From Candidatus Culexmicrobium cathedralense (GTDB taxonomy: Archaea; Thermoproteota; Methanomethylicia; Culexarchaeales; Culexmicrobiaceae): a stretch of 64,000 bases of DNA. Shown one piece after another: positions 33,706 through 49,618 of the stretch. The stretch is from contig JANZKC010000002.1 in assembly GCA_025061115.1 (NCBI GenBank), forward strand, positions 1-64,000, given 5' to 3'. Each line of letters begins with the position of its first letter. The stretch's first letter is position 1. The notes under the pieces are model-generated. The model was not told the origin of the DNA and searched no databases. It saw nothing but the letters and a program-made list of their open reading frames with translations. Position numbers and translations under genes: made by a program.

Positions 33706-34832
33706 TCACAAACTATTACCTTTACCTCCATGCTTATATGCTATGGCGCAGGCACCTTCGCTAGAAACCATGCATGGCCCAACTGGATTTAGCGGATTAC
33801 ACGTCCTAGCAAAGAGCGGGCATTCCCATGGCATTATTAGACCTCTTAAAACATCGCCACACCTGCATCCCGGAGGCATTTCATAGCTCTCTTCAACCTC
33901 AAGGTCAAATTTCAACTCTGCATCATACTTCTCAAACTCACTTTTAAGCTTCAATCCCGAATTCGGAACCCTACCAATTCCCCTCCAGTCGGCATCGTAA
34001 ATGTCAAATACTTCCTTCATCATTCTCTGCGCCTTCACATTGCCCTCCTCCTTAACAACCCTCGCATATTCATTGAAAACATCATAGTGACCCTCCCTAA
34101 TCATTTGAATGAGCATCGCAGTTCCTATCAAAACATCAATCGGCTCAAATCCAGCTATGACCATTGGAGCCCTAAACCTCTTCGCAATCGGTCTATAAGG
34201 TTTAACTCCAATTATAGTTGAAACGTGACCTGGACAAATGAAGCCATCTATTTTAAGTTCACCGAGCCTAAGCAGGAACTCCATGACCGGCGGAATAAGC
34301 AGGTGAGTGCATATTATCGAGAAATTGCTGGGAGGCTTTTCAAGCAGAACTGCAGCTGTGGATGGAGCAGTAGTTTCGAATCCAATTGCAAAGTGAACCA
34401 CCTCCTTATCCGGATTATTAAGAGCTAACTTAACCGAATCCCAAATACTATACACCACAACAACATTTCCACCCATGGACTTAGCTTCCATAAGCGATTG
34501 CCTCGTCCCCTTAACCCTAAACATGTCTCCAAAAGTAGTTACTATCACGTCATTCCTCATTGAAAGCTCAACCGCCTCCTGAACTTTAACTGGAGAAGCC
34601 ACGCATACTGGGCATCCTGGACCTGCTCTCAAATCTACTTTAGAAATTAAACTTCTAATTCCAAAGTGGGTTATCGTATATTCGTGAGTCGGCCAGCCGC
34701 TTAATGCGGCTGTGTGCCGCACACATGCATAACTAGGAACCTATCCTCACCGCACAACCTATTTATATATGCAACCAACTTCTCAGCCAATTTCCTATCC
34801 CTATACTTTGAAATCAAATCGAGAAGTTCCAT
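33706..34832 (-). CDS. hypD: Hydrogenase maturation protein HypD, interrupted by a 26-nt candidate intron (exons 34832-34714 and 34687-33706; 366 aa spliced)
   Basis: GPGCPVC, GFETT, PGHVS, CRCG..C..C..GPCMVSSEGAC; MHVCGTHEY restored on removing 34688-34713; GGGGGTGA RBS. Confidence 0.92.
34688..34713 (-). other. Candidate bulge-helix-bulge mRNA intron
   Basis: GUG-CGGC-AC^A-CAGCCGC-AUUAA-GCGGCUG-GCCG-AC^U-CAC: 4-bp helix, two 3-nt bulges, 7-bp inner stem, exon-exon outer helix. Confidence 0.88.
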
Positions 34833-34846
34833 CACATTCACCCCCA

Positions 34847-35329
34847 TCAGCTTGCCAATGCATAATATAGAAGTGAAAATGCAAATGCGCAAACCGCAAA
34901 GTTAGCTAAATGATTATCATACCTTACATTTGCAATTTTAAAGTCCATTCCATGCTTAATAAAGAAATCCAATGTGAAACCAATAGTTCTAACTCCAGAA
35001 GGATTTAGCGCATCCAAAAGCCAGTGAAGAAAGACAGCTAAAGCAGCAACTACGGGATTAAAGCGAATCAAATACGCAACTATTGGAGCCAATGCAGTAA
35101 ACGTATAAACGCTATGCGTTAACCCGCACCTATGCTGAATTAACCCCTTAAACAAGTGGTCAAAATCAGGAGCTATACCAAATATTGCACCCTGAACTCC
35201 AAGAGAAATAAACGAAAGATCAACAAATGAAGCTAAATCGGATTGAATATCAACTTCAAACCCATATAGAAGCTTAGCTAGAATTACAGAAAAAGTCCAG
35301 CCCACAACTAAATGCGTGTACTTCTGCAT
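34847..35329 (-). CDS. Membrane-bound metal-dependent hydrolase (YdjM-like)
   Basis: TH...PDFDH...HRCGLTHS...HWLLDALNPSG. Confidence 0.85.
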   Translation of the reverse strand: MQKYTHLVVGWTFSVILAKLLYGFEVDIQSDLASFVDLSFISLGVQGAIFGIAPDFDHLFKGLIQHRCGLTHSVYTFTALAPIVAYLIRFNPVVAALAVFLHWLLDALNPSGVRTIGFTLDFFIKHGMDFKIANVRYDNHLANFAVCAFAFSLLYYALAS

Positions 35330-35736
35330 TACAATCTCCACAAATGAGAAGCAGGTAAGCACTTATTAAATTTTGGAAGTTAATGGTGCAACCTTAATTT
35401 GAAACTTTTAAAAAGGCTTGATTTGAAGGTGCCCTAGAACCTACCTCCTAAAAAGACTTAGAAGCAGCTGAGCAGTATAGGGAAGAGATCGAGAGCCTGT
35501 CTTGCAACGTTAAATAAATTAGTTAACTAAGGAATTCATAGGTAATGAAATTTACAAGCAGTTTTTAGCTTAGGTAGCTAGAGAGCTCCTTTAAGTTAGT
35601 GGTTTTCCATTCCGTTAGTTTAGTTACTCTAGATGTTTAAAATAACTATGGACGCTGAGTTAGGAGAACGTTATCTCGTTCATATTGCAGTCTGATATCT
35701 GCTATAATTGGCCGTTGAGTTGGCTTAGAAAATTAC

Positions 35737-48553: not shown

Positions 48554-49618
48554 GTGGACATCCTAATAAAAACAACCCTGGGCATGGAAAAAGTTGCAGC
48601 CACAAGAGTCGAGGAAACAATACCTGAGGTGCAAGTCATACCTAAGCCATATGGATTCATGGGGCTAGTAGCAGTAAAAACAGAGCTCGATAAAAAAGAG
48701 GCGGCGAAAAAGATTGAAAGCAACGTATTGGAGGCAGATAGGGTAATAGTAGTTGAAGAGTGCGTTCCCGCCAATCTAGATGAAATAGCTGAAGCAGCAG
48801 CAAGAATAGCCAAAAAGAGCATTGGAAGCAAAGATACTTTTGCAGTAAGAACAGTTCGAAGAGGCAAGCATGAATTCACGAGCATCGATGTTAACGTCGT
48901 AGCTGGAGCTGCAGTTAAAAAAGCAACTAGAGCACTTGTAGACTTAAAATACCCATCAAAAATCATTAGAATTGAAATTTTGAAGAACCTAGCATTAATA
49001 GCGATTGAAGATGGAGAGAAAGAGCTGAAAAAAATTAGGCCTGGCAAAATCCCAGTTATAGAGTTCTTGAGGAAAATTGCCATAATTCAAATGCCTTACC
49101 TCGGACCGCTAAACGCCATTAGAGCCATTGGAGTTAGAGTAGGAAGGGAAGTTCAAACATTTGAAGTTAGAGAACTAGTCATATCTCCAATAGGAGCAGT
49201 AAAAGCCGAGGAATTAAAGGTATTTATTGAAGGAGTATTTGAGGGAATAAACTCAAGATATGAAATTCAACGAAAAACTTATGGAAGAAAAGTGTGGAGA
49301 GTTCCAGTTTTCATCCAAGATCTACATCAGCTAGTTAGGGAGAGAAGAAGGAGAGAACCAATAATCGTGCTTGAACCGGAAGGAGAACCCCTACCTAAAG
49401 TTAAAGATAACCTCGCCGAGATACTGCTAAGTGAAAAGAAAAGAATTAATGTTCTCATTGGAGCTAGAGAAGGCATTCCACTTGGAATCTATAGATTCGC
49501 CAACCTAGTAGTTGATATATGCCCTGGAATAACAATTTCAACAGATTATGCTGCAGCTTCAGCATTGATAGCATTCTCAACAATAATCGAGGAAAAACTT
49601 CTTGAAAAGAAATCATAA
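48554..49618 (+). CDS. THUMP-SPOUT RNA methyltransferase
   Basis: IKT.LGMEK, FAVRTVRRGKH.FTS.DVN..AG (THUMP); QMPY, GAREGIP.G (SPOUT). Confidence 0.9.
   Translation: MDILIKTTLGMEKVAATRVEETIPEVQVIPKPYGFMGLVAVKTELDKKEAAKKIESNVLEADRVIVVEECVPANLDEIAEAAARIAKKSIGSKDTFAVRTVRRGKHEFTSIDVNVVAGAAVKKATRALVDLKYPSKIIRIEILKNLALIAIEDGEKELKKIRPGKIPVIEFLRKIAIIQMPYLGPLNAIRAIGVRVGREVQTFEVRELVISPIGAVKAEELKVFIEGVFEGINSRYEIQRKTYGRKVWRVPVFIQDLHQLVRERRRREPIIVLEPEGEPLPKVKDNLAEILLSEKKRINVLIGAREGIPLGIYRFANLVVDICPGITISTDYAAASALIAFSTIIEEKLLEKKS

Follow-up and report, generated by a model that had tools for sequence, protein, structure and literature searches.

The hypD locus and its insert

The window analysed here is the whole 64,000-nt stretch at positions 1 to 64,000 of contig JANZKC010000002.1 from the archaeon Candidatus Culexmicrobium cathedralense (class Methanomethylicia), whose genome is assembled as 1.98 Mb in 25 contigs with 41% GC. 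Its minus strand carries hypD, the gene of a hydrogenase maturation factor, which is broken at the codons of its C-G-T-H-E motif by a 26-nt insert with the geometry of an archaeal bulge-helix-bulge (BHB) intron (Table 1). Very probably this is a genuine and conserved intron of the hypD pre-mRNA, spliced in the manner described below. Two open reading frames (ORFs) in different frames meet at the break, one of 63 aa (34701..34892) and one of 338 aa (33706..34722). The exon-2 ORF matches the Pfam HypD family (PF01924, 9.1e-133) over profile positions 28-350 of 351, and exon 2 matches the solved T. kodakarensis HypD (2Z1D, 3.7e-93) from chain residue 41; it carries the GPGCPVC, GFETT and PGHVS regions. 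Exon 1, which encodes the N-terminus up to ...M-H-V-C-G plus the AC of the Thr codon, has no Pfam match by itself, and its homology is detectable in relatives by tblastn.

Table 1. Features of the interrupted hypD gene, with exons and intron as predicted (window positions)
Feature	Position	Strand	Extent or parts
hypD exon 1	34714..34847	-	ATG 34847 (alternative ATG 34832) to second base of Thr codon
BHB intron of hypD, 26 nt	34688..34713	-	excision restores the frame
Whole hBHBh' motif	34683..34723	-	outer helix, central helix, two bulges, inner stem-loop
hypD exon 2	33706..34687	-	third base of Thr codon, then H-E-Y-T-I-T-H-F... to stop 33706-33708

Read 5' to 3' on the minus strand (34723..34683), the hBHBh' motif consists of an outer helix UGUG/CACG of 4 bp (G-C, U-A, G-C and U.G), a central helix CGGC/GCCG of 4 bp whose 5' strand is exonic (the third base of the Cys codon and the Gly codon), one 3-nt bulge on each strand 3' of the central helix (ACA and ACU), and a perfect inner stem of 7 bp (CAGCCGC/GCGGCUG) closed by an AUUAA loop. 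The intron accordingly begins with the last base of the 5' bulge, continues through the inner stem and loop and the central helix's 3' strand, and ends two bases into the 3' bulge. In each 3-nt bulge the archaeal splicing endonuclease EndA cuts between the second and third base, and this rule reproduces exactly the 19-nt intron called by aragorn in tRNA-Gln(CUG) of the same genome. Applied to hypD in silico, the rule removes the 26 nt and gives a stop-free frame with a C-G-T-H-E joint, encoding a HypD of 371 aa from the first ATG or 366 aa from the next. In the unspliced RNA the exon-1 frame ends as ...M-H-V-C-G-T-Q-P-H-stop at the UAA of the loop. A first-pass annotation, made from the letters of the window, had proposed this anatomy, the 26-nt excision with its 366-aa product and C-G-T-H-E joint, and the in-frame UAA; the anatomy holds to the base, and so do the product and the stop.

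That the insert is an artefact of assembly or binning has a negligible probability. The assembly is in 25 contigs, with 7.65% contamination on record, and the first-pass annotation had allowed for an assembly artefact. The contigs of four public runs cover 34683-34723 without indel or substitution, which makes the insert real DNA; two of these runs represent other strains (5 and 4 differences elsewhere in 601 bases) and one may be the source of the assembly. Twelve further genomes and 47 metagenome contigs moreover carry homologous inserts.

Upstream of hypD, the stop codon of a YdjM-like ORF (34847..35362, minus strand) overlaps the first hypD ATG (TGATG, 34845-34849), an arrangement that suggests co-transcription of the two genes, with the hypD start at either 34847 or 34832.

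Distribution among relatives

The class comprises 62 species genomes, and a search with the exon-2 protein found hypD in 54 of 61. Thirty hypD loci fetched by protein similarity alone form an unbiased comparative set. Twelve of them, the window's own included, carry an insert of 20-28 nt between the Gly and His codons, and all 12 inserts show by eye the CGGY/GCCG helix, two 3-nt bulges and an inner stem of differing sequence; the other 18 read C-G-T-H-E uninterrupted. Aligned to intact orthologues, the predicted spliced products show no gap at the joint. A class-wide pattern scan, with 0 control matches, added one genome (G038), bringing the total to 13 of 62, and 23 further junctions that were fetched are all intact. 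The 54 genomes with hypD are thereby divided into 13 with the insert, 40 intact, and one (G002) in which the junction lies off its contig.

Counted by family, the insert occurs in 2/3 genomes of f1 (junctions seen), 1/1 of f2, 1/5 of f3 and 9/9 of f7, the last matching proteins named Candidatus Nezhaarchaeales at NCBI, and in 0/30 genomes of f5, 0/4 of f4 and 0/1 of f9. Both states are found within one genus, where G004 has the insert and G003 is intact. The insert-bearing f3 genome, G009, has two hypD genes: an insert-bearing copy (L009/L035) 71% identical to that of the window, and an intact, divergent copy (L196, C11:2186-2336) at 46%. In a search beyond the class, hypD proved intact at 77/80 named loci (bacteria, Bathyarchaeia, Hadarchaeota and Aenigmatarchaeota), and the three with an insert are class members already counted. 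A pattern scan of a 401-genome sample of the phylum yielded no genome beyond the same 13.

A pattern scan of metagenomes gave 47 contigs, which together with the 13 genome loci represent 44 distinct variants of 20-42 nt. Among these is a metagenome-only HypD clade with inserts of 28-37 nt, one cluster of which bears the source name 'Candidatus Bathyarchaeota archaeon' (name unverified). Within it, L129, L131, L139-L141, L146, L158, L161-L163 and L167-L169 have inserts of 32-33 nt in which an in-frame UGA directly follows the 5' cut. In most of them the third inner-stem pair is a conserved A.C mismatch (L161 has A-U); the sister group of this 32-33-nt clade has inserts of 37 nt.

Covariation and codon choice

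The first-pass annotation had pointed to relatives as the place where BHB pairing should be either kept or lost, and inserts at the same codon do retain it through compensatory changes. In the 13 genome sequences, 97.1% of cells are paired, 7/15 pairs show double changes and 0/500 shuffles reach the score, with slid controls at 28-41%. In a model-based alignment of the 44 distinct variants (60 matches), 96.2% of cells are paired, with 73 double-change cells, 0/500 shuffles reaching the score and slid controls at 30-38%. For the central helix the paired share is 100% in the 13 sequences and in the 44 variants alike (the search pattern fixed this helix in the metagenome set). The 44 variants have 96.6% of outer-helix cells and 92.7% of inner-stem cells paired, and compensatory double changes occur at each of the five modelled inner-stem pairs. 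In 43/43 variants the codon at the junction is ACN (Thr).

Part of the motif is dictated by the protein. Three of the outer pairs are set by invariant residues (codon positions Cys2-His1, Cys1-His2 and Val2-Glu1), and the fourth, Val3-His3, joins two synonymous sites. Pairing of Val3 with His3 is possible in 37/43 insert alleles (10/13 in the unbiased set) versus 14/40 intact alleles, and the Gly codon is GGY in 13/13 unbiased insert alleles versus GGR in 30/40 intact alleles, both contrasts being inflated by kinship. From these codon choices, the synonymous exon sites of insert alleles appear adapted to the helix.

The same variants bear on translational recoding, in which ribosomes, aided by the hairpin, would bypass or frameshift over the insert without any cutting of RNA. 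Both bulges are Thr codons in the window (ACA and ACU), and a hop from ACA to ACU would yield the same protein. Against this, the landing codon is not conserved, because the dinucleotide that opens the 3' bulge varies freely across 43 variants (AA 14, AG 12, AC 7, AT 7, GG 3), so that the would-be landing codon is AGN, AAN, AUN or GGN in 36/43. The insert lengths of 20-42 nt occupy all three phases, and what is conserved is the two-bulge geometry rather than a take-off and landing pair. Recoding is consequently highly improbable. Programmed bypass of the phage T4 gene 60 type was likewise rejected, since matched codons are not found, the 3' bulge beginning with AC in just 7/43 variants.

Chance and fold stability

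The 71-nt context of the hypD insert folds at -23.9 kcal/mol (z = -2.6), with 3/200 shuffles folding as well, and its minimum-free-energy (MFE) fold retains the central helix, 5' bulge and inner stem. Among 8787 hBHBh' matches in a loose genome-wide scan, the hypD motif is the most stable (-20.4 kcal/mol), followed by the tRNA-Gln(CUG) intron (-18.8). In the 64-kb window, the hypD locus is the only match of model R1. What lies beyond chance is the exact coincidence of the motif with the frame break, together with the comparative data; the main weight for an intron rests on this position at the break and on conservation with compensatory changes in relatives.

Several observations weigh against splicing or reduce the force of the evidence for it. 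The MFE fold pairs a G-C with the middle base of the 3' bulge, so that this bulge is drawn differently. The hBHBh' motif alone is not enriched, with 8787 matches against 8689 in the reversed genome, and the best motif of this control reaches -19.0 kcal/mol against -20.4 for hypD. Three of the four outer-helix pairs were written base by base into the metagenome pattern, which also fixed the central helix and the 3-nt 3' bulge; this leaves the inner stem and the Val3/His3 pair as the only independent tests in metagenome contigs, and the relatives compared are not independent samples. The variable outer-helix position is unpaired in 6/44 variants, an A.C mismatch in the inner stem is common to 12/44, and L135 and L156 fit the motif poorly. 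No RNA run is present among the sequencing runs listed for the hypD locus, and the protein collection holds no intact HypD of the spliced type for the Nezhaarchaeales lineage.

Two other origins of the insert were considered and rejected. A mobile element was dismissed in that neither a second copy of the intron (up to 5 mismatches) nor of the motif (up to 8 mismatches) is present in the genome. A self-splicing group I or II intron was dismissed on the grounds that Rfam gives 0 matches in 34400-35000 at E up to 1, and that 26 nt is far below ribozyme size.

Selection and gene context

The ratio of nonsynonymous to synonymous substitution rates (dN/dS) of hypD is 0.10 between the window's gene and that of G004 (both with insert), 0.075 between the window's gene and the intact gene of G003, and 0.16 between G005 and G009, with a range of 0.07-0.16 across the four pairs with unsaturated dS. 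No further stop codon is present in 12 insert-bearing hypD genes. Both exons are under purifying selection and the gene is not decaying, as the first-pass annotation had argued from the intact motifs and as the value of 0.10 against another insert-bearing orthologue bears out.

A decaying or split gene, in which the insertion is disabling or exon 2 is translated alone, is scarcely credible on this evidence. Public ORF calls do begin inside the insert, as such a gene would have it. Set against this are the dN/dS values of 0.07-0.10 with conservation of both exons, the lack of any other stop in the 12 genes, and the structure of exon 2, which has no conserved start and lacks the Cys of the C-G-x-H motif, located in exon 1. 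In addition, hypD is single-copy (exon 2 being the sole HypD match in the genome) while the hydrogenase genes are intact: there are four loci with a match to the NiFe large subunit and one with a match to hypC.

The genome also encodes the enzymes of the route that the first-pass annotation had named, EndA cleavage followed by RtcB ligation. The EndA family (PF01974) matches twice (5.6e-32 and 6.7e-23), in paralogues of 186 and 174 aa, putatively a catalytic and a structural copy to judge by catalytic residues. The two genes are located at C1:462959 and C2:433801. RtcB (PF01139) matches once (6.2e-181). The cbf5 gene of the same genome is unsplit.

Proposed splicing of hypD

From the motif, the restored frame, its conservation, the selection on both exons and the encoded enzymes, we infer that the hypD mRNA is cleaved, ligated and translated in the following manner. 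The intron would interrupt the Thr codon of the C-G-T-H motif in phase 2, and the pre-mRNA would fold into the hBHBh' structure. Exon bases would build the outer helix, with Val/Cys codons pairing against His/Glu codons, as well as the central helix's 5' strand (UGC GGY); the remainder would come from the intron. A heteromeric splicing endonuclease, composed of the two EndA paralogues, would cut each bulge between its second and third base; RtcB would then join the exons (AC + N = Thr) and probably circularise the excised 26-mer. Full-length HypD would be encoded by the spliced mRNA only, and the cell would need it for maturation of its [NiFe] hydrogenases. Persistence of the intron would require no function of its own.

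The first-pass annotation had raised a possible 'regulatory gate'. In such conditional splicing, intron removal would be regulated (by temperature, by EndA/RtcB availability or by ribosome occupancy) and would gate the supply of HypD, and with it the maturation of the hydrogenases. The unspliced mRNA does end early, with an in-frame stop in 16/16 in-frame inserts and a stop within the matched stretch in 39/43 variants, but such stops are expected from any AU-rich loop. The insert is retained in 9/9 Nezhaarchaeales-like genomes with hypD, but close relatives lack it (G003, G006-G008, and 30/30 f5 genomes), so that no essential regulatory role is indicated. Conditional splicing is on these grounds distinctly unlikely.

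Evolutionary history

At least three changes of the insert state are needed on a quick maximum-likelihood tree built from 72 HypD rows. The tree left out 61 bacterial loci (5/66 were kept as outgroup), proteins shorter than 300 aa and duplicates, and its metagenome rows are biased toward inserts by the route of their discovery. The insert-bearing groups fall together with the intron-less f5 in one clade (SH-aLRT 86). A single old gain followed by precise losses fits the tree, as do several gains at one site; probably, the intron is old in its HypD clade and has been precisely lost several times. A more far-reaching proposal is that an ancient pre-mRNA intron predates the split of the Culexarchaeales-like, Nezhaarchaeales and a third, unplaced lineage, and has remained anchored because the invariant V-C-G-T-H-E codons form half the motif, with splicing as a checkpoint that couples RNA processing to hydrogenase maturation, and with EndA splicing of mRNAs wider than recognized and mis-annotated in TACK archaea. 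Taken as a whole, this proposal is rather unlikely.

Public annotation of insert-bearing hypD

Public calls for insert-bearing hypD begin inside or upstream of the predicted intron in the exon-2 frame, giving spurious N-termini and losing the Cys-bearing exon 1. Examples are P0003, P0005, P0023, P0037, P0045, P0060 and P0096, and likewise the window ORF 33706-34722. Twelve protein clusters at least 70% identical to a Nezhaarchaeales-like exon 2 are 278-345 aa long, all without the C-G-T-H-E joint, and the lack of an intact HypD among them weighs neither for nor against splicing. More broadly, C-G-[TSG]-H-E is absent from the first 120 residues in 27 of the 120 best clusters, some of which are merely cut by contig ends; at least one of the 27, P0105, reads C-G-T-H-T, a normal variant of the motif. 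Public HypD calls that begin within the intron miss the essential N-terminus with its Cys, and metabolic reconstructions for Culexarchaeia and Nezhaarchaeia based on them may therefore misjudge hydrogenase maturation.

Comparison with known spliced mRNAs

The cbf5 pre-mRNA intron of Crenarchaeota was reportedly described by Watanabe in 2002 and by Yoshinari in 2006. As of 2009, according to Yokobori 2009 (PMC2738675), no gene other than cbf5 had been confirmed to have an mRNA intron, and splicing of cbf5 had been shown by experiment. A 2020 study (PMC7714728) describes cbf5 as the sole BHB intron in archaeal mRNA reported before its own case in a 5' untranslated region (UTR), and a 2025 paper still cites only cbf5 work. 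The precedent of cbf5 to which the first-pass annotation had appealed is borne out by PMC7714728 and PMC2738675. In the full-text literature searched, with most subscription journals and supplements outside it, no hypD intron is described, only cbf5 (coding) and the one 5'-UTR case. Accordingly, hypD looks like the second archaeal protein-coding gene known to need RNA splicing.

The hypD and cbf5 introns are alike in being short BHB introns within an ORF, whose removal is presumably the work of the tRNA-splicing endonuclease and ligase, in their patchy and precise presence or absence among close relatives, and in having hosts with a two-subunit EndA. They differ in that hypD encodes a hydrogenase maturation factor and cbf5 an RNA-modification enzyme; in that the cbf5 intron is found in Crenarchaeota, whereas the hypD intron is found in Methanomethylicia (Culexarchaeales-like and Nezhaarchaeales-named) and an unplaced metagenomic clade; and in that splicing is experimentally shown for cbf5 and deduced from sequence for hypD. 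The intron of HVO_1309 in Haloferax volcanii (PMC7714728) is likewise a case in which the archaeal splicing endonuclease acts on an mRNA rather than on tRNA or rRNA. By contrast, it lies in the 5' UTR, whereas the hypD insert breaks the reading frame and the protein would depend on splicing.

Archaeal tRNA introns of the hBHBh' type share the geometry and cut rule of the hypD intron, but in hypD codons of invariant residues (V-C-G ... H-E) take the place of the anticodon stem, forming the outer helix and one of the two strands of the central helix. In eukaryotes, the HAC1 and XBP1 mRNAs are cleaved by IRE1 at two stem-loops, and subsequent joining by tRNA ligase or RtcB shifts the frame; PMC4090602 touches on this system. 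The likeness to hypD lies in cleavage of an mRNA at two sites by a protein enzyme and in a joining step, by a tRNA ligase, that changes the frame; the nuclease and the motif differ, HAC1 and XBP1 are known to be regulated, and no common descent is implied.

A second host gene, in another class, would mean that the tRNA-splicing machinery shapes proteomes beyond a single curiosity. The 44 natural variants of hypD provide a ready-made covariation series, and the intron offers a clean natural substrate for the study of EndA and RtcB action on translated mRNAs.

Other candidate introns in the genome

The first-pass annotation had further suggested that other apparent pseudogenes may be spliced genes. 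This found no counterpart in the genome: no locus besides hypD joins a stable motif with an ORF fusion, in a weak scan that recovers 1/15 of the tRNA introns called by aragorn and is blind to relaxed motifs and to introns longer than about 143 nt. The ORF-fusion filter on hBHBh' matches is itself not enriched (429 versus 426-483 in shifted controls). The runner-up BHB-like motif, C4:21495-21629 (-10.8 kcal/mol, 135 nt), falls in a GC-rich region whose long open frames reflect base composition and include no credible ORF; it resembles an rRNA gene region and is possibly a processing or intron site.

Aragorn reports tRNA-Phe and tRNA-Ser with 'introns' of 637 and 1895 nt (C2:258860-259571 and C4:125827-127817), which are probably artefacts or else split or large-intron genes, and 15 further tRNAs with predicted introns of 7-64 nt. 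For tRNA-Arg(ACG) (C4:48765-48863, 99 nt), aragorn calls no intron, yet a strict BHB motif predicts one of 22 nt at 48811-48832.

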